From sequence record MN715356: a stretch of 64,000 bases of DNA; one strand, 5' to 3'. This document shows positions 1,635-63,353 of this stretch, one piece after another. Every line of letters begins with the position of its first letter. The stretch's first letter is position 1. The position numbers and the translations under genes were made by a program. This DNA is from Escherichia phage vB_EcoP_EcoN5. Under the pieces are notes generated by a model. That model saw nothing but the letters and a program-made list of their open reading frames with translations, was not told where the DNA came from and ran no database searches.

Positions 1635-1871
1635 ATGAACATTAGGCATCAATTCAATAAAGAGCACGCCGCCGCTTTGGCGGCTCTCAATCTTAACGGC
1701 AGTCTTGACGCAGCATTAGAGGCATTGAAAGAAAGACTCATGACAGAGATAGTTCAAACAGAACCTCATGAGAATAAGAAACGCGAAGATTGTTATCAAA
1801 AGTATAAAATGGTGGGTAGCTTAAAAGAGGTCATAAAAGCTGCTATCAATAGTGCAGGAGATGTTTCATAA
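1635..1871 (+). CDS. hypothetical small protein between portal and scaffold
   Basis: 78-aa ORF, co-oriented, stop overlaps next start (TAATG); no recognisable motif. Confidence 0.4.
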   Translation: MNIRHQFNKEHAAALAALNLNGSLDAALEALKERLMTEIVQTEPHENKKREDCYQKYKMVGSLKEVIKAAINSAGDVS

Positions 1872-3421
1872 TGCCACAAGATAATTATATTGACCCGAAC
1901 GATTTTAAATCTTTCCTCCAACTGGATGACCTGAAAGGTTCTTTTAAAGAAGAGCTTGGTCGATTAGAATCTGAACAAGAACCAGAAGTGGACATTGACG
2001 ATGAGTTTCCGGAACAAACCGGTGACGAATTCGACTTTGATACCGACCTTCTCGGTGAAAGCGATGAGCTTAAGTTCGAAGATGAAGATGGTTGGGAAGA
2101 TCGTGATGAGGAAGGCGAAGTCGAAGAAGATGGGGATGACTCTGATGAAGGTGATGAAAACACTGAAGTAGAAGAGGAAGACTCAAGCGATGCAGGATAT
2201 GAAGATGATTCTGCTGACGGTGATGGTGAAGTCTTTGATGTAGACTACGAAACCGTTATCACCCTTCCTGATGGACGTGAGATGACTATTGAAGAACTCT
2301 CCAATGGCTATCTCACTGGCGCTGATATGACAGAACGAGAATCAACTCTTCAGCGTCATATGGAAGCATTTGAGGAACGTGTAGTAGGTTTGAAGGATGT
2401 ATTAGAATTAGCGTCTTTAGAAGCAGACCGAGTAATTGAAGATTACAACGGATTTGATTGGGACAAGCTTGCAGTAGAAGATCCTCAAGCATATGTTGAA
2501 AACAAACGTTTCCTAGAGAAGTACACAGCTCGTCGTAACCAGCTTGAACAGGCTCAGGCCCGTATTAAGCAGGAAGCAGCAGCTAAAGAGCAGGAAGCTT
2601 TCCAAGCCAAGAGCATTGAATGTGTTAATATTCTGAAACGTGAGATTCCAAATTGGGATGAAAACTTATATCAAAACTTAATGCAATACGCAATTGACTT
2701 AGGTGCTACTGAAGAAGAAGTATTGAAGGAAAACCGTCCGTCTATTTTCCTAGCTCTCCACAAAGCATACCAATTTGATAAAGGTAAGCAGCAGGTGATG
2801 GCTAAGATTAAACGTCCCGGTGCTCCACGCAAGGTTGTGAAGTCTGATGCTGCAAAGTCTCGCACTTCCAATAAGCCAGACAACGCTAAGGTTGCCAAGG
2901 CATTCGCAGAGGGTCGCGTTAGTCACGACAAGCTTGCAGTAGAAGATCCTCAAGCATATGTTGAAAACAAACGTTTCCTAGAGAAGTACACAGCTCGTCG
3001 TAACCAGCTTGAACAGGCTCAGGCCCGTATTAAGCAGGAAGCAGCAGCTAAAGAGCAGGAAGCTTTCCAAGCCAAGAGCATTGAATGTGTTAATATTCTG
3101 AAACGTGAGATTCCAAATTGGGATGAAAACTTATATCAAAACTTAATGCAATACGCAATTGACTTAGGTGCTACTGAAGAAGAAGTATTGAAGGAAAACC
3201 GTCCGTCTATTTTCCTAGCTCTCCACAAAGCATACCAATTTGATAAAGGTAAGCAGCAGGTGATGGCTAAGATTAAACGTCCCGGTGCTCCACGCAAGGT
3301 TGTGAAGTCTGATGCTGCAAAGTCTCGCACTTCCAATAAGCCAGACAACGCTAAGGTTGCCAAGGCATTCGCAGAGGGTCGCGTTAGTCACGAAGACGCA
3401 TTCAAATTCCTCGTAGATTAA
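1871..3421 (+). CDS. scaffolding protein (poly-acidic N-terminal tract; carries in-frame 155-aa tandem duplication)
   Basis: Position between portal and major capsid; acidic D/E-rich region; helical charged C-terminal part repeated twice. Confidence 0.5.
   Translation: MPQDNYIDPNDFKSFLQLDDLKGSFKEELGRLESEQEPEVDIDDEFPEQTGDEFDFDTDLLGESDELKFEDEDGWEDRDEEGEVEEDGDDSDEGDENTEVEEEDSSDAGYEDDSADGDGEVFDVDYETVITLPDGREMTIEELSNGYLTGADMTERESTLQRHMEAFEERVVGLKDVLELASLEADRVIEDYNGFDWDKLAVEDPQAYVENKRFLEKYTARRNQLEQAQARIKQEAAAKEQEAFQAKSIECVNILKREIPNWDENLYQNLMQYAIDLGATEEEVLKENRPSIFLALHKAYQFDKGKQQVMAKIKRPGAPRKVVKSDAAKSRTSNKPDNAKVAKAFAEGRVSHDKLAVEDPQAYVENKRFLEKYTARRNQLEQAQARIKQEAAAKEQEAFQAKSIECVNILKREIPNWDENLYQNLMQYAIDLGATEEEVLKENRPSIFLALHKAYQFDKGKQQVMAKIKRPGAPRKVVKSDAAKSRTSNKPDNAKVAKAFAEGRVSHEDAFKFLVD
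2462..3393. repeat. perfect tandem duplication, 2 x 465 bp (copy 1 about 2462..2926, copy 2 about 2927..3391), in frame within scaffold gene
   Basis: Identical antisense ORFs 2671..2898 and 3136..3363 (offset 465); protein segment DKLAVEDPQ...AFAEGRVSH occurs twice; boundaries checked base by base. Confidence 0.9.
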
Positions 3422-5908: not shown

Positions 5909-8689
5909 ATGATCGTTTATAATAACCAAGCACCTGATGCAGTGAATAACGTTGGGCAGTTTGGTGCTACTGAAGGCTCTATTGGAGCTTATAAGCAAGC
6001 AGCAGAATATGCAGCTGACTCCAAATATTGGGCACTGTTGGCGGAGTCTAAGTTTGGTACAATTGATGACTTGATCGCTGAAGTAGAACGTCTGTATCAA
6101 CAAGGTGTTCTGATGAAGCAGGATATTGAAGATCTTAAGCAGGACTTTAAAGATCAAGATGCTCGTTTGATGACTCTGATTGCTCAAACTAACGCAGCAG
6201 TCTCTGACGCTAACAATGCTGTAGCTCTAATTAACCAGAAACTTATTGAAGTCCAGAATCAGCTTGACGTTCTGTTAGGAATGTCCGTTGATGTAACCAC
6301 ACTTCCTCCGGGAACCCCAGCTACTGGCTCTTTTAATCCGAATACTGGTGTAATTTCTTTAGGTATCCCAGAGGGTGATCCCGGAAAGGATGGTTCTGTT
6401 AAGGATTTGGATACAGCACCTACCGGTGTTCCAGAGTTAGGGGACTTAGGTTTCTATGTTGATAAGGACGATAATACCGTTCACAAAACAACTTTAGAGA
6501 ATATCGCTAACCTAATCCCGTCTGTTCGATCTGTATCTGTTAACGGTGGCCCTGCTCTTGATGGAGAAGTCGCCCTAACGATTAACAAGGAGACGGTTGG
6601 TTTAGGGAATGTCATAAACGTTCCTCAGTATAGTCGCCAAGAGATTAATGACAAGTTTGACAAAACTACCAAGACATACCAATCAAAAGCAGAAGCAGAT
6701 GCTGACGCTCAATATCGTCAAGTAGGTGAGAAAGTCTTAGTTTGGGAAGCTACTAAGTATGAATTCTATACTGTTGCTGCTAACAAGACGTTAACTCCTG
6801 TTAAAACTGAAGGTAGAATTCTTACCGTTAACTCTCGTTCTCCAGACTCCAGTGGTAACATTGATATTACAATCCCAACAGGGAACCCCTCTCTGTACCT
6901 TGGTGAAATGGTAATGTTCCCTTATGACCCAGCTAAGAATATTTCATATCCTGGTGTTCTTCCTGCTGATGGTCGTCTGGTATCAAAAGAGTCTGCTATC
7001 GACTTAGGCCCATCTCTTGTCAGTGGACAGCTACCTGTTGTTTCTGAAACAGAGTGGCAGGCCGGTGCTAGACAATACTTCTCTTGGGGTAAATTGGCAG
7101 ATGGGGTTACTGATGCAGATTCTACTAACTTTATAAGTATCCGACTTCCTGACTGGACTGGTGGTGAGGCTATCAGGTCTCCTGATTCAGATAAAGATGC
7201 TAATTACAAAGGTCGTGTTCAATCTCAGATTCCTTACATTGTAACCGTAAACGGAAAAGCTCCTGATGACGCTAATGGTAACGTAGTTCTTACGGCTGCT
7301 AATGTTGGTGCAGCGGCATCTGGGGCAAACTTAGATATCACCTCTCTTAATGGATTAACTACCCCTCTCTCTGTTGCTCAGGGTGGTACGGGTGTCACCG
7401 ATATTGGCTCGCTTCGTAGAGCGGCGTTGGTTCAGGGGGTTCTGTGTAATGATCAGGCTGGCCCTCAATCTTATAACAGTTATAGATCTCCTAACGGGGA
7501 GTATGCTTTCAAAGTGGATAACTCGGGACTTGTTGCTTCTATTAATGCAAGGACGGAAGAAGTTGTACCTTTTGCTATAGAATCAGGTGGTACGGGAGCA
7601 ACCACATTAAACGATGCTCGAATTAGTTTAAATTTGGAGAGATTTTTACAGCCTAGCAATGAAACCATAGTTATGGCTCCTAGTAAATCTTCATATTTAA
7701 CAATTTCAGACACCTCTTGGGGGGCTTATAGTTCTGCTGACTCAGCATGGAGAGCTTTAGGGGTAGGACAAGGTGGTACAGGAGCGACCTCTGAGGCTGC
7801 TGCTCGTGTCAATCTGAAGGTGGATAAGCTTGTTCAAAGTTCAACAGACACAAAACTGCTGGATGGTTCTGGAGAACATACCTTCTTTATTACAGATGCA
7901 GATTGGGGGTATTTCAAGAACTCTGACTCTTCTCGAATAGCTTTGCCAGTTATGAGTGGTGGTACAGGAGGGAAAACTCCAGCAGAAGGCTCTGAGAAGC
8001 TAGGAGCAATGCATTGTCAGTATGGTTCATCAACCTACTATGGTGGTGGGGATTTACCAACTGGTGTTGGGTTCTATAACCAAGACACGTCACCTTTTCC
8101 GGGAGGTAACGGAGCACCTTTCGCTTATGCAGAGATAATGACTGTTGCTGAAGGTGGTCGTGGAGGTAACTGGTCCCAAATAGGGTTCTCTACTATCACA
8201 TATGAAGCCCCTCGCTACAGACAAAGAACTAGTGACCCTTCTTTAATCACAAACTGGCGTGACTTCTTAGTAAGGGATTTGAACACTACCATAGATGTTA
8301 ATGGTTTTGTTAAGATTGCATCGCCTATAGTCAAACTAAAATCTGACGGGTCTTCTGAGGTCAATGACCAAGCCCAAGGAGTAACAACCGAAAGATTAGA
8401 TGTTGGTGTTTATAAGATCTCTGGGGTTCTAGGTTTTAACTCAGACCCCTCTTGGGGAGGTAATAATGGCGGTTTCTCTATTCCTCAAAACTCTAATGGT
8501 TTGCCTTTGTTATGGGTGGATTACGAAGTTGATGAAGAAGGTGATATTACTCTGAAAACTTACCATCGAACTCACGAGGGAGTTCCTTCTTTTGCAAGTA
8601 ATGTAATAGAAGGTGTGGTGGATGGAGAACCTATTGACATTCCAGAAGGACGTTGGGTAGATCTTCGTGTAGAGATGCCAACGGTGTAA
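5909..8689 (+). CDS. tail fibre protein with repeated GGTG(A/V)T fibre motifs
   Basis: 926 aa; recurring motifs AQGGTGVTD, ESGGTGATT, GQGGTGATS, MSGGTGGKT typical of phage tail-fibre repeats. Confidence 0.55.
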   Translation: MIVYNNQAPDAVNNVGQFGATEGSIGAYKQAAEYAADSKYWALLAESKFGTIDDLIAEVERLYQQGVLMKQDIEDLKQDFKDQDARLMTLIAQTNAAVSDANNAVALINQKLIEVQNQLDVLLGMSVDVTTLPPGTPATGSFNPNTGVISLGIPEGDPGKDGSVKDLDTAPTGVPELGDLGFYVDKDDNTVHKTTLENIANLIPSVRSVSVNGGPALDGEVALTINKETVGLGNVINVPQYSRQEINDKFDKTTKTYQSKAEADADAQYRQVGEKVLVWEATKYEFYTVAANKTLTPVKTEGRILTVNSRSPDSSGNIDITIPTGNPSLYLGEMVMFPYDPAKNISYPGVLPADGRLVSKESAIDLGPSLVSGQLPVVSETEWQAGARQYFSWGKLADGVTDADSTNFISIRLPDWTGGEAIRSPDSDKDANYKGRVQSQIPYIVTVNGKAPDDANGNVVLTAANVGAAASGANLDITSLNGLTTPLSVAQGGTGVTDIGSLRRAALVQGVLCNDQAGPQSYNSYRSPNGEYAFKVDNSGLVASINARTEEVVPFAIESGGTGATTLNDARISLNLERFLQPSNETIVMAPSKSSYLTISDTSWGAYSSADSAWRALGVGQGGTGATSEAAARVNLKVDKLVQSSTDTKLLDGSGEHTFFITDADWGYFKNSDSSRIALPVMSGGTGGKTPAEGSEKLGAMHCQYGSSTYYGGGDLPTGVGFYNQDTSPFPGGNGAPFAYAEIMTVAEGGRGGNWSQIGFSTITYEAPRYRQRTSDPSLITNWRDFLVRDLNTTIDVNGFVKIASPIVKLKSDGSSEVNDQAQGVTTERLDVGVYKISGVLGFNSDPSWGGNNGGFSIPQNSNGLPLLWVDYEVDEEGDITLKTYHRTHEGVPSFASNVIEGVVDGEPIDIPEGRWVDLRVEMPTV

Positions 8690-38428: not shown

Positions 38429-38923
38429 TTAAAGCTCCTTTAAAGCATGGAGTATTGCTGTATGGCTCACGCCAAATAACTTACCGAGACCTCTAGAGCC
38501 ATAATCTCTAGAACCTTTTACATACATTTGTTTGATCTTTACAACATCTACAGATGATAGTTTGGTAGCTGCATTATGATCACGAGATTTTCCAACATTC
38601 AAGCCCGTGTCGAATGCATGTCTCATGTTTTCAGAAGGAGTCACCCATTCAAGATTCTCTACCCTGTTATCAGATTTAATTCCATTTATATGGTTTATCT
38701 CTGGATAGTTGTTAGGGTTTGGTATCAAATGTGTTGCTATAAGTCTGTGAGCCTTCCAATGCCTACCCTCGAAAAAGATGCCTATATAACCTTTTCGGTT
38801 TATATGACCAGCCTCTTTGACGGGATGACTCTTGTTCCACTTACGACCTTTTTCTGTAGATGAAGTAAAGAAGAGCTTTCCAGATTTTTCATCATAAGAA
38901 AGCCAACTTCTAATAGGAATCAC
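38429..38923 (-). CDS. HNH homing endonuclease
   Basis: Motif EINHINGIKSDNRVENLEWVTPSENMRH. Confidence 0.6.
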   Translation of the reverse strand: MIPIRSWLSYDEKSGKLFFTSSTEKGRKWNKSHPVKEAGHINRKGYIGIFFEGRHWKAHRLIATHLIPNPNNYPEINHINGIKSDNRVENLEWVTPSENMRHAFDTGLNVGKSRDHNAATKLSSVDVVKIKQMYVKGSRDYGSRGLGKLFGVSHTAILHALKEL

Positions 38924-58943: not shown

Positions 58944-60140
58944 TTATTTTCCTAAAAATAATCCGCTCATGACACCATCCCACTCAGAGGAAGGAATCAC
59001 TGAATACTCCGAACTTTGGTCCAGAGTCCCACTACTAAATCGCTGAACAATGTTGTAGATGTTGAACAGGTCTTTAGTCTCGGCACGAATGCCGTAGATT
59101 AGCCTGTTAGCTGTTTTCTCATTTTTAGACACGCGACGGGTAAAGTTAACCAAAAGATTATCACCTTTAAGTATCTCTGACCCATCTTTTACTAGATCGG
59201 GGTGCATCACTGGCAAGAACATTGAGTTGTTAACTCGTAATTCTGCTGTTTCATCATTCTCATAATGAATCCACTTAAAGTCTTCATCACGGAAATGACC
59301 ACACCCATCTCTGTATGACTGTTGACGCCAAGGAACTTGAAATGCTTCAGAGTGTTTATCAGCCATGCCGACTGTAAACAGCGACGCTGGGAAGATACAA
59401 GCATCCCAATCATTACCAACCAGAGTTGCTTTCGTTTCCCCTAAGAGGTTAGTGTAAGTGCTAACCATTCGTGAGTAAACGTAAGCCTGAAGAATTGTCC
59501 AGCCTTCAACCAACCATTTATGAAGGAAGGTTTCAACTTGACTCTCTTCATCTTCGCAATAGAAGGTTCTATCTAACATTAAATAGAACAGACAACGATC
59601 AGCAGGAACATTCTCAGTTGCTACCCCCATAAAGCCTTTCTCGTGCCAGCGTAAACAGGAGGGACGATCTTTGTCCACAAATGCTTCCATAGCTTCCAGT
59701 ACAGCACGAGGTGTGGTTCGATATTCAGGGTTTTTGTCGTTCCAACGATCAATGTTATTCTTAGGAGGTGTGTCTTCATCTTCATACGAACACCAACTTA
59801 AAGCTTCAGCTACGTGCTTTTCATCACGCCAGCGTCTAAAACCTAACATCTTCATGTGAGTTCCGGAGTTCCAGATATGCTTGATTTTACACATATCCAT
59901 CTCTCGGCTTAACAGGAATTCTTCCCCATCAGCACTACGAACGTTAGCCTCTTCATGCCACACTCGAACGTGCATATTCCACCCATGAGTTGCCTCATAC
60001 ATGTTAGGGTCGAAGTATTCATCTTCGTCATCATCTTCATCAACGCCACCGTTATAGTTGCGAAGCTGAAGGAACCCATAACAAGGAGGGTTGACCGTTA
60101 AAACATTACCTTCAGTATCTTCTAATGTTACTGGAAACAT
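58944..60140 (-). CDS. hypothetical protein (5' 162 nt lie inside the 1518-bp repeat)
   Basis: 398-aa co-oriented ORF; acidic N-terminal stretch DEDDDEDEY. Confidence 0.4.
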   Translation of the reverse strand: MFPVTLEDTEGNVLTVNPPCYGFLQLRNYNGGVDEDDDEDEYFDPNMYEATHGWNMHVRVWHEEANVRSADGEEFLLSREMDMCKIKHIWNSGTHMKMLGFRRWRDEKHVAEALSWCSYEDEDTPPKNNIDRWNDKNPEYRTTPRAVLEAMEAFVDKDRPSCLRWHEKGFMGVATENVPADRCLFYLMLDRTFYCEDEESQVETFLHKWLVEGWTILQAYVYSRMVSTYTNLLGETKATLVGNDWDACIFPASLFTVGMADKHSEAFQVPWRQQSYRDGCGHFRDEDFKWIHYENDETAELRVNNSMFLPVMHPDLVKDGSEILKGDNLLVNFTRRVSKNEKTANRLIYGIRAETKDLFNIYNIVQRFSSGTLDQSSEYSVIPSSEWDGVMSGLFLGK

Positions 60141-60151
60141 TATACCAACCT

Positions 60152-60514
60152 CTATTGGTTTTTAATCAACTCAATCGACTTACGGATATAAAGAATATCT
60201 CGGAAGTTTCGATAGTTGTTCATAAATTGGTGCTTCTGGAAAGTAGCTTCTTCCAGAGCTTTCTTTGCTTCTGCGTAATTTTTACGGGCAAGATGTACAA
60301 CCCGCTCTGGTAACACATTTGCACGACGGATGATATACTTGTGAGCTTTCATGTTGCTTTGCTCACGAGCAATCTTACATTTAGCAACTTTGATACCATT
60401 TGCAATCCAAGCAAGTTCTTGCTCAAGCTCATCGTTGGACATTCCACCGAGATTTGATGCAACCTTGTTCAGAGTTTCAATATTAACGTTGCCCTTAATG
60501 GGACGTGTATTCAT
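60152..60514 (-). CDS. hypothetical protein (within repeat copy 1)
   Basis: 120-aa ORF, basic helical. Confidence 0.4.
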   Translation of the reverse strand: MNTRPIKGNVNIETLNKVASNLGGMSNDELEQELAWIANGIKVAKCKIAREQSNMKAHKYIIRRANVLPERVVHLARKNYAEAKKALEEATFQKHQFMNNYRNFRDILYIRKSIELIKNQ

Positions 60515-60516
60515 AC

Positions 60517-60669
60517 TTACTCCTGTTGTTTACACTCGTCAATAACCCACTGATAAGTGGATTGCCCAGAAAAGAAACACTGAATAAATCCAGATGTTCT
60601 CTGCGTTACCAGTGCTAGTGCACAAATCACTACCGCTGCTGCTAGCAGTTTTAAATCTAATTTAGACAT
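60517..60669 (-). CDS. small hydrophobic protein (50 aa, within repeat copy 1)
   Basis: Unlisted ORF MSKLDLKLLAAAVVICALALV...; stop sits 2 nt before next start. Confidence 0.3.
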   Translation of the reverse strand: MSKLDLKLLAAAVVICALALVTQRTSGFIQCFFSGQSTYQWVIDECKQQE

Positions 60670-60906
60670 ATTTCCTCTCATTGAATTTAAAAAAGGACTC
60701 TCCGAAAAGAGCCAAGCTTTAAATCCAAAAAAAGATATTACCCAATATCTGTGGATAACCTGCTCTTAAAATATCTATCCGACGGATGTTTGAGGAACAC
60801 TCCTCTCCCTAGCATCGGCCCCATACGGGAAATATATTAAGATTAGGTTAGTTGAGTCAGAATAACTCACATAGCCCTCCGAGGAAGGCTATAGGTGTTA
60901 CTACAA

Positions 60907-61122
60907 CTAAAAATCACCTGATTTTACAAAATCATCACTAAGAATTTCGTCAATCTCTTTGCTAGTCAAATCTTTCCTGAACCAGCAACAAGGTACATCC
61001 ACCCATTGACCAGAGTTGTTTTCTACAGAGCATCTATTGCCTGTCTTACTCTTGCACTTATAGGTTTTACCTTTGTCTAGACGGTAGTGTATTCTGTAAA
61101 CGATCGACACAAGTGTTATCAT
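60907..61122 (-). CDS. hypothetical small Cys-containing protein (within repeat copy 1)
   Basis: 71-aa ORF with CKSKTGNRC...CC. Confidence 0.35.
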   Translation of the reverse strand: MITLVSIVYRIHYRLDKGKTYKCKSKTGNRCSVENNSGQWVDVPCCWFRKDLTSKEIDEILSDDFVKSGDF

Positions 61123-61355
61123 TACTCGCCTTTCTTAGCACGATCTTTGGCAGTTTTGCCAGTGCGGATGCGATGGGAAACGTTAACCAGAGTGCCACCA
61201 TCAACTACGGTAACGCTCTTGTTTTTAGCCAGATCGAACACAGTTTTCTCCGTGCCACCCAAGCGAATTTGCTTAGGCTCACTGAAGGTTTGGGTTGATT
61301 TAGATTGGAACTGAAACGGTTGACGGATTGCATCAATTGCACTTACTTTAGACAT
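61122..61355 (-). CDS. hypothetical small protein (within repeat copy 1)
   Basis: 77-aa ORF, 1-nt overlap with downstream gene. Confidence 0.4.
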   Translation of the reverse strand: MSKVSAIDAIRQPFQFQSKSTQTFSEPKQIRLGGTEKTVFDLAKNKSVTVVDGGTLVNVSHRIRTGKTAKDRAKKGE

Positions 61356-61490
61356 AGTGGAAATTCCTTAAAAAGTTATGGCTGCGTAGAGGGAATTCCC
61401 TACGCAAATTGGGCCGCCTAAAAAGAGGCGTCATAGTACTAAAAGGAGGAGAGAAGAGGGCTTATTTAGCTACCTTTTTCTGTCCGTTTA

Positions 61491-61658
61491 CAAACCCCAC
61501 CCATGAGTTGCCTCATACATGTTAGGGTCGAAGTATTCATCTTCGTCATCATCTTCATCAACGCCACCGTTATAGTTGCGAAGCTGAAGGAACCCATAAC
61601 AAGGAGGGTTGACCGTTAAAACATTACCTTCAGTATCTTCTAATGTTACTGGAAACAT
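61491..61658 (-). pseudogene. truncated duplicate of the 5' end of gene 58944..60140, created at the repeat junction
   Basis: First 54 codons identical to the 398-aa gene, then the frame runs into copy-1 tail and stops after 2 codons. Confidence 0.6.
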
Positions 61659-61669
61659 TATACCAACCT

Positions 61670-62032
61670 CTATTGGTTTTTAATCAACTCAATCGACTTA
61701 CGGATATAAAGAATATCTCGGAAGTTTCGATAGTTGTTCATAAATTGGTGCTTCTGGAAAGTAGCTTCTTCCAGAGCTTTCTTTGCTTCTGCGTAATTTT
61801 TACGGGCAAGATGTACAACCCGCTCTGGTAACACATTTGCACGACGGATGATATACTTGTGAGCTTTCATGTTGCTTTGCTCACGAGCAATCTTACATTT
61901 AGCAACTTTGATACCATTTGCAATCCAAGCAAGTTCTTGCTCAAGCTCATCGTTGGACATTCCACCGAGATTTGATGCAACCTTGTTCAGAGTTTCAATA
62001 TTAACGTTGCCCTTAATGGGACGTGTATTCAT
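61670..62032 (-). CDS. hypothetical protein (repeat copy 2 duplicate of 60152..60514)
   Basis: Identical 120-aa translation. Confidence 0.4.
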   Translation of the reverse strand: MNTRPIKGNVNIETLNKVASNLGGMSNDELEQELAWIANGIKVAKCKIAREQSNMKAHKYIIRRANVLPERVVHLARKNYAEAKKALEEATFQKHQFMNNYRNFRDILYIRKSIELIKNQ

Positions 62033-62034
62033 AC

Positions 62035-62187
62035 TTACTCCTGTTGTTTACACTCGTCAATAACCCACTGATAAGTGGATTGCCCAGAAAAGAAACACTG
62101 AATAAATCCAGATGTTCTCTGCGTTACCAGTGCTAGTGCACAAATCACTACCGCTGCTGCTAGCAGTTTTAAATCTAATTTAGACAT
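62035..62187 (-). CDS. small hydrophobic protein (repeat copy 2 duplicate)
   Basis: Identical to 60517..60669 at offset 1518. Confidence 0.3.
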   Translation of the reverse strand: MSKLDLKLLAAAVVICALALVTQRTSGFIQCFFSGQSTYQWVIDECKQQE

Positions 62188-62424
62188 ATTTCCTCTCATT
62201 GAATTTAAAAAAGGACTCTCCGAAAAGAGCCAAGCTTTAAATCCAAAAAAAGATATTACCCAATATCTGTGGATAACCTGCTCTTAAAATATCTATCCGA
62301 CGGATGTTTGAGGAACACTCCTCTCCCTAGCATCGGCCCCATACGGGAAATATATTAAGATTAGGTTAGTTGAGTCAGAATAACTCACATAGCCCTCCGA
62401 GGAAGGCTATAGGTGTTACTACAA

Positions 62425-62640
62425 CTAAAAATCACCTGATTTTACAAAATCATCACTAAGAATTTCGTCAATCTCTTTGCTAGTCAAATCTTTCCTGAAC
62501 CAGCAACAAGGTACATCCACCCATTGACCAGAGTTGTTTTCTACAGAGCATCTATTGCCTGTCTTACTCTTGCACTTATAGGTTTTACCTTTGTCTAGAC
62601 GGTAGTGTATTCTGTAAACGATCGACACAAGTGTTATCAT
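62425..62640 (-). CDS. hypothetical small protein (repeat copy 2 duplicate)
   Basis: Identical 71-aa translation. Confidence 0.35.
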   Translation of the reverse strand: MITLVSIVYRIHYRLDKGKTYKCKSKTGNRCSVENNSGQWVDVPCCWFRKDLTSKEIDEILSDDFVKSGDF

Positions 62641-62873
62641 TACTCGCCTTTCTTAGCACGATCTTTGGCAGTTTTGCCAGTGCGGATGCGATGGGAAACG
62701 TTAACCAGAGTGCCACCATCAACTACGGTAACGCTCTTGTTTTTAGCCAGATCGAACACAGTTTTCTCCGTGCCACCCAAGCGAATTTGCTTAGGCTCAC
62801 TGAAGGTTTGGGTTGATTTAGATTGGAACTGAAACGGTTGACGGATTGCATCAATTGCACTTACTTTAGACAT
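62640..62873 (-). CDS. hypothetical small protein (repeat copy 2 duplicate)
   Basis: Identical 77-aa translation. Confidence 0.4.
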   Translation of the reverse strand: MSKVSAIDAIRQPFQFQSKSTQTFSEPKQIRLGGTEKTVFDLAKNKSVTVVDGGTLVNVSHRIRTGKTAKDRAKKGE

Positions 62874-62979
62874 AGTGGAAATTCCTTAAAAAGTTATGGC
62901 TGCGTAGAGGGAATTCCCTACGCAAATTGGGCCGCCTAAAAAGAGGCGTCATAGTACTAAAAGGAGGAGAGAAGAGGGC

Positions 62980-63096
62980 TTATTTAGCTACCTTTTTCTG
63001 TCCGTTTACAAACCAGATAATCGAACCGTCAGGCTGTCGTTGACCGAAGCCTTTTTGGTTAATCATATCGTCATAAGAATATGCTTTACGTCTCAT
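62980..63096 (-). CDS. small hypothetical protein (38 aa) spanning the outer repeat boundary
   Basis: Unlisted ORF MRRKAYSYDDMINQKGFGQRQPDGSIIWFVNGQKKVAK; 5' part in unique DNA, 3' part inside repeat. Confidence 0.3.
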   Translation of the reverse strand: MRRKAYSYDDMINQKGFGQRQPDGSIIWFVNGQKKVAK

Positions 63097-63104
63097 TTGT
63101 TTTC

Positions 63105-63353
63105 CTACGAAGTTAGGATGATTTCAGCCTTAATAAACTTCTCACCAACAACCATGTCACCAGACACAGGACGAACCTCTCCAGTGCCTAGGTTAACAGC
63201 TCCAGCAGGTTGACAACCCATGCTCTTAGTTGTCAGCATGTAAATCTTTTGAAGATGGCACTCTTGGAGAGTGAACACATCTGACATATTTAGATCTTTA
63301 ACACGGAGGACTGTTTCCTCTTTGCTCTTAACTTTAATATGAATAGTGCTCAT
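63105..63353 (-). CDS. hypothetical small protein
   Basis: 82-aa co-oriented ORF. Confidence 0.35.
   Translation of the reverse strand: MSTIHIKVKSKEETVLRVKDLNMSDVFTLQECHLQKIYMLTTKSMGCQPAGAVNLGTGEVRPVSGDMVVGEKFIKAEIILTS

Follow-up and report, generated by a model that had tools for sequence, protein, structure and literature searches.

Two perfect tandem duplications in a phiEco32-like phage sequence probably stem from unmerged contig overlaps and very unlikely mark genome ends

The 64,000-nt stretch of DNA analyzed here, referred to below as the window, comes from the sequence record MN715356 of Escherichia phage vB_EcoP_EcoN5, a phiEco32-like podovirus of Escherichia coli (genus Kuravirus, Gordonclarkvirinae), and contains near its right end a tandem direct repeat with a unit of 1518 bp. 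The two copies (59979-61496 and 61497-63014) are adjacent, lie head to tail and show 0 mismatches, and the period-1518 identity ends exactly at both unit borders, with 0 bases of further identity on either side. The first-pass annotation had described two such adjacent identical copies, each carrying four small genes, a non-coding stretch of about 240 bp and the 5' end of a 398-aa gene, and this description agrees with our analysis, in which the non-coding stretch measures 225 bp. Three features go beyond that description: the right end of the unit lies inside a 38-aa gene, a 56-aa open reading frame (ORF) spans the point where the copies meet, and a second perfect tandem duplicate, with a unit of 465 bp, is located close to the left end of the window within the gene for the head scaffolding protein. 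A scan of k-mer spacings indicates that the 1518-bp and the 465-bp units are the only two long exact repeats in the 64-kb window. Chance as the origin of the 1518-bp repeat is ruled out by its length, and a chimera of two strains is ruled out by the identity of the overlapping parts. A copy driven by a mobile element or a homing endonuclease was also considered and rejected, the copies being adjacent and free of terminal inverted or direct repeats, and no homing-endonuclease ORF being noticed within about 3 kb when the ORF list was read, a reading in which the flanking ORFs were taken without domain search. Apart from the exact repeats, a pair of 53-nt direct repeats was seen at 38604-38656 and 50836-50888, 12.2 kb apart and 74% identical with a shared ending ...GTCACCCATTCAAGATT, which may have arisen by chance or reflect a motif shared by gene ends.

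All genes of the 1518-bp unit are encoded on the minus strand and each copy contains ORFs of 120, 54, 71, and 77 aa. The 120-aa gene (60152-60514, second copy 61670-62032) is a homologue of phi32_89 (PHROG 11370), the 54-aa gene (60517-60681, second copy 62035-62199) of phi32_90 (PHROG 13048), the 71-aa gene (60907-61122, second copy 62425-62640) of phi32_91 (PHROG 33631), and the 77-aa gene (61122-61355, second copy 62640-62873) of phi32_93 (PHROG 6662). Both borders of the unit cut ORFs. At the left border this is the 398-aa gene (58944-60140, minus strand), a homologue of phi32_88 (PHROG 13063) which is intact and has its first 54 codons (162 nt) within copy 1, the same 162 nt being included in each copy; at the right border it is the 38-aa gene (62980-63096, minus strand), a homologue of phi32_94 (PHROG 14557) which is also intact and has its last 35 nt within copy 2. 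At the novel head-to-tail junction (61477-61516, with the break at 61496/61497) the sequence reads ...GTTTACAAACC|CCACCCATGAG... and displays 0 bp of microhomology. Across this junction runs the 56-aa ORF (61488-61658, minus strand), which consists of the 54 codons of the 398-aa gene contributed by copy 2 followed by Gly-Leu-stop from the end of copy 1; an exact-protein look-up found no record of this 56-aa protein. Such look-ups likewise returned no record for the 398-aa protein, the 120-aa protein and a portal fragment. The 120-, 54-, 71-, 77-, 398-, and 38-aa proteins all belong to Kuravirus-specific PHROGs of unknown function, a Pfam search of the unit proteins yielded no match reaching the curated cut-off, and neither the PHROGs nor the Pfam searches provided a functional reason for amplifying this cargo.

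The non-coding spacer of 225 nt (60682-60906, second copy 62200-62424, minus strand) separates the 71-aa gene from the 54-aa gene and is 95-98.6% identical across 11 relatives. As RNA it folds far more stably than shuffled sequences do (z = -4.17), and two terminator-like hairpins are present, one directly after the 71-aa gene and the other (GGCTCTTTTCGGAGAGTC followed by a T-run) just before the next ribosome-binding site. One weak sigma-70-like match occurs per copy, at a frequency no higher than in shuffles, the promoter core AATGTATA of phiEco32 gp36 is absent from the 1518-bp unit, and an Rfam search of the spacer gave no match at E <= 1. The spacer may act in regulation or termination or encode a small RNA, and in case the duplication is real, a complete small transcription unit would have been doubled.

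About 96 phage records match the window at approximately 93-98% identity and none of them is the same genome. The window is collinear with phiEco32 4462-64350, starting inside the portal gene and running through the structural, replication and small-gene clusters, and in this comparison many ordinary cassette indels are found, with the two duplicated units alone mapping twice. The 1518-bp unit corresponds to phiEco32 phi32_88 (5' end), 89, 90, 91, 93, and 94 (3' end), and copy 1, like the identical copy 2, maps once, to phiEco32 61146-62295 and 62750-63128. A homologue of phi32_92 is missing from the window and likewise from several relatives. The place concerned is a variable cassette slot, which lies at 61122 in the window, at the boundary of the 71-aa and 77-aa genes (about 10234-10950 in the relatives L004-L013), and is empty in the window; in phiEco32 it is occupied by the 154-aa membrane protein phi32_92 and in other relatives by 85-aa or 93-aa genes or by nothing. 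Among the relatives, genes of 71, 85, 93, and 154 aa alternate at this cassette position. The phi32_92 gene measures 465 nt, the same length as the scaffold duplicate by coincidence, and no sequence relation between the two was found.

When the 1518-bp unit was used as a query, 96 records were matched at 97 places in all, with one place in each of the 60 records listed. A 500-nt query across the junction was covered to at least 80% by one place in 0 of 80 phage records, its halves matching two separate places. The exact 77-aa protein occurs in many Kuravirus contigs, with one copy at each locus. Ten such contigs beyond the phage records (ENA, Logan, and NCBI, metagenomes included) were compared and carry the locus once each; all ten show the gene order 38 aa - 77 aa - variable cassette - 120 aa - 398 aa, with both normal boundaries contiguous, the novel junction split and no tandem k-mers. 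In IMG/VR and JGI metagenomes the patterns for the 1518-bp junction (45-mer) and for the 465-bp junction (35-mer) were absent; a control 35-mer across the normal scaffold boundary was present in 3 IMG/VR contigs.

The 465-bp duplicate (2462-2926 and 2927-3391, plus strand) is located inside the head scaffolding gene (1871-3421) and its copies show 0 mismatches, with 2 bp (GA) of microhomology at the junction 2926/2927. The duplication is in frame and repeats residues 198-352, leading to a predicted protein of 516 aa compared with 361 aa for phiEco32 gp10. phiEco32 (6923-7389) and all relatives listed have this unit once. Homologue clusters of the scaffold protein in a large protein collection all fall between 317 and 398 aa (60 of 60), down to about 36-40% identity, and the closest cluster, comprising 219 sequences, has a length of 361 aa. 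Judged from these sequences, length is evidently conserved in the scaffold family. An exact-protein look-up found no record of the 516-aa protein, a form which was seen in the window only. The protein being essential and conserved in length, a phage in which it is lengthened by an insert of 155 aa is unlikely to be the fit wild type. A HindIII site (AAGCTT) is located at the start of the 465-bp unit (2464-2469 and 2929-2934) and hence at the junction; a comparable site is missing from the 1518-bp junction, and no inference is drawn from the HindIII site. In the same phage group, the record PP350014.1 (phage PH444, 114,913 bp) matches the scaffold and capsid region at 98.5-99% and is about 1.5 times as long as the normal 75-81-kb genome; its assembly may be chimeric or extended too far.

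The first-pass annotation had taken the 1518-bp repeat as a candidate direct-terminal-repeat junction, placing the physical genome ends at 61496/61497. According to this explanation virion DNA would have the structure R-U-R, with the 1518-bp unit as R, and the record would have been circularised or rotated. A tandem R-R of zero divergence is indeed what is expected when a terminally redundant genome is written end to end, and terminal repeats misplaced to internal positions are a known flaw of phage records (PMC8785237). Also, single-copy relatives are alone insufficient as an argument against genome ends at this place, as collapsed assemblies of such genomes show one copy too. However, the placement is contradicted by Kuravirus ends, which have been mapped elsewhere. 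The terminal repeat of phiEco32 was established by restriction profiling, primer walking and subcloning, 193-bp repeats were seen on full-length nanopore reads of phage YF01, PhageTerm predicts a 193-bp repeat for phage Paul, whose record is opened at the left repeat, and repeats of 192-193 bp are recognisable by similarity in 30 phages of the group (PMC9965538, PMC6787329). Both ends of the phiEco32 record consist of an exact 193-bp repeat; when this repeat was compared with the window by BLAST, chance matches of 11-15 nt were obtained and no homologue. Kuravirus ends lie upstream of the terminase module and the window begins inside the portal gene. In addition, the unit is internal in phiEco32 (61146-63128 of 77554), in Paul (63560-65075 of 79429) and in YF01 (63333-65315 of 78626), and is found 13-17 kb from the right end in end-anchored records.

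The Kuravirus direct terminal repeats, which serve a T7-like packaging from concatemers, resemble the window unit in being exact direct repeats in a phage of this group, and the likeness goes no further than that. The former are placed at the two genome ends, adjoining the terminase module, whereas the 1518-bp copies are adjacent to each other and 13-17 kb from the mapped right end. The family repeat measures about 192-193 bp and has a conserved core (about 130-170), whereas the window unit is 1518 bp long, eight times the family length, and bears no sequence similarity to it. Unlike the Kuravirus repeat, the window unit holds four genes and cuts two more, with both of its borders inside genes. 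Moreover, a genome end cannot also lie at 2462-3391, where the second perfect duplicate is located. Because the ends are mapped, the lengths differ eightfold, the breakpoints lie inside two genes and a second duplicate exists, it is very unlikely that the 1518-bp repeat is a genome-end junction, and we give this reading almost no weight.

The other options named in the first-pass annotation, a genuine recent duplication and an assembly artefact, are the two readings that survive. We favor the latter and consider, with a rough probability of 0.65, that both perfect duplicates arose from unmerged contig overlaps and do not reflect the structure of virion DNA. Two pieces with overlapping ends would have been joined end to end with the overlap left untrimmed, so that ...X followed by X... 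would write X twice and perfectly, and the breakpoints would fall wherever the pieces ended. An alternative route with the same outcome would be a contig with terminal redundancy that was re-opened elsewhere. The 465-bp duplicate would be the second joint of this kind, as two pieces closing a circular map would give exactly two joints; one piece would correspond to 2927-61496 (58.6 kb) and the other to all remaining sequence of the genome, in which the true 193-bp terminal repeat would lie. The sequence displays the features of such an origin: the copies are exactly identical, the breakpoints are arbitrary, the junctions are absent from relatives, and there is a second instance in the same sequence. 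In particular, the breakpoints are random-looking, being located inside ORFs and having microhomologies of 0 bp and 2 bp, which is the chance level. An artefact is thus favored because two unrelated duplicates of zero divergence coexist, their breakpoints ignore genes, microhomology is at chance level, the junctions are absent elsewhere and the length of the scaffold protein is aberrant. As to stability, homologous recombination quickly removes a perfect direct repeat of 1.5 kb that is not under selection.

Phage annotation guidelines list contigs extended too far, duplicated regions and misplaced redundancies among the errors that recur in phage records (PMC8785237). The duplicates in the window share with the error class of that Phage Annotation Guide the perfect identity, the gene-blind breakpoints free of microhomology, the absence from relatives and the presence of more than one instance. 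They differ from the cases described there, which are redundancies at contig ends and misplaced terminal repeats (PMC8785237), in that both are internal and neither is the family repeat. As a consequence of the internal position of both duplicates, an extra joining or rotation step must be assumed.

Several points weigh against a joining artefact. The joining step itself is one that we infer and do not observe directly. Exact tandem repeats are as a rule collapsed, not created, by De Bruijn assemblers, so that an artefact presupposes a joining step done manually, during scaffolding or by overlap-layout. The window is otherwise well polished and its ORF lengths match those of phiEco32, which argues against general carelessness in the assembly. 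The reading frame is kept in the 465-bp duplicate, as a viable duplication in an essential gene demands, whereas an artefact would keep it in 1 of 3 cases. Finally, every gene is intact in at least one copy, so that a real duplication would be tolerable.

These points are consistent with genuine recent duplications, in which the 1518-bp cassette would have been doubled as the phage replicated, through illegitimate recombination or template switching, and a separate event would have duplicated 155 scaffold codons, both having reached consensus in the sequenced stock. Identical head-to-tail copies have the look of a fresh duplication, no gene is destroyed, since the 398-aa and the 38-aa genes each keep an intact copy, and the unit sits in a variable cluster of leftward-transcribed small genes in which cassettes come and go. 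However, this course of events is rather doubtful as two unrelated events of zero divergence must be fixed together, as neither junction occurs in about 100 related genomes or in metagenome collections, and as scaffold proteins keep closely to a length of about 360 aa. Nor does anything point to a shortage of DNA that the duplicates would make good, the window exceeding the collinear phiEco32 span by 4111 bp and remaining about 2.1 kb longer than this span when the duplicates (1983 bp) are subtracted.

A selective advantage for the 1518-bp duplication can be envisaged if it is regarded as a 'gene accordion' of two copies, through which one or more genes for host takeover or anti-defence, together with the conserved regulatory spacer, would be present at twice the dosage. 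Segmental amplification of anti-defence loci has been documented in T4 (PMC9391042) and T6 (PMC13096335), and the window unit resembles the T-even accordions, that is dmd-tifA in T4 (PMC9391042) and the SegB-driven case in T6 (PMC13096335), in being an identical head-to-tail cassette of small genes on the kilobase scale. In contrast to these, the window unit is present in two copies only and its boundary lacks the microhomologies of 6-10 bp on which T4 segmental amplifications typically sit (PMC9391042), the values at the two window junctions being 0 and 2 bp. Besides, the ORF list revealed no homing endonuclease nearby on reading, domains not having been searched, the window shows no deletion that would compensate for the added DNA, and the four cargo genes are all of unknown function. 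We regard a dosage-driven accordion as a less likely explanation than a joining artefact. Taken as a whole, the view that both duplications are real and recent in a new Kuravirus stock, with a dosage-selected four-gene cassette (for example, against host defence) and an in-frame extension of 155 residues in the scaffold of a prolate (C3) head, appears unlikely to us, and the repeat, which is plainly present in the sequence, most probably has no biological basis.

If the duplicates are artefacts arising from unmerged overlaps, the record overstates the genome by 1983 bp and adds four phantom genes, a chimeric 56-aa ORF and a false 516-aa scaffold protein. Genome ends inferred from the 1518-bp repeat would fall about 15 kb from the actual cut site of the group, and the main value of the repeat is that of a quality flag. 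If the duplications are real, the locus would point to a cassette of small phage genes selected for dosage and to a longer scaffold that is viable. This would be modestly interesting, and the scaffold extension would represent an experiment of nature on the relation between scaffold length and head length.

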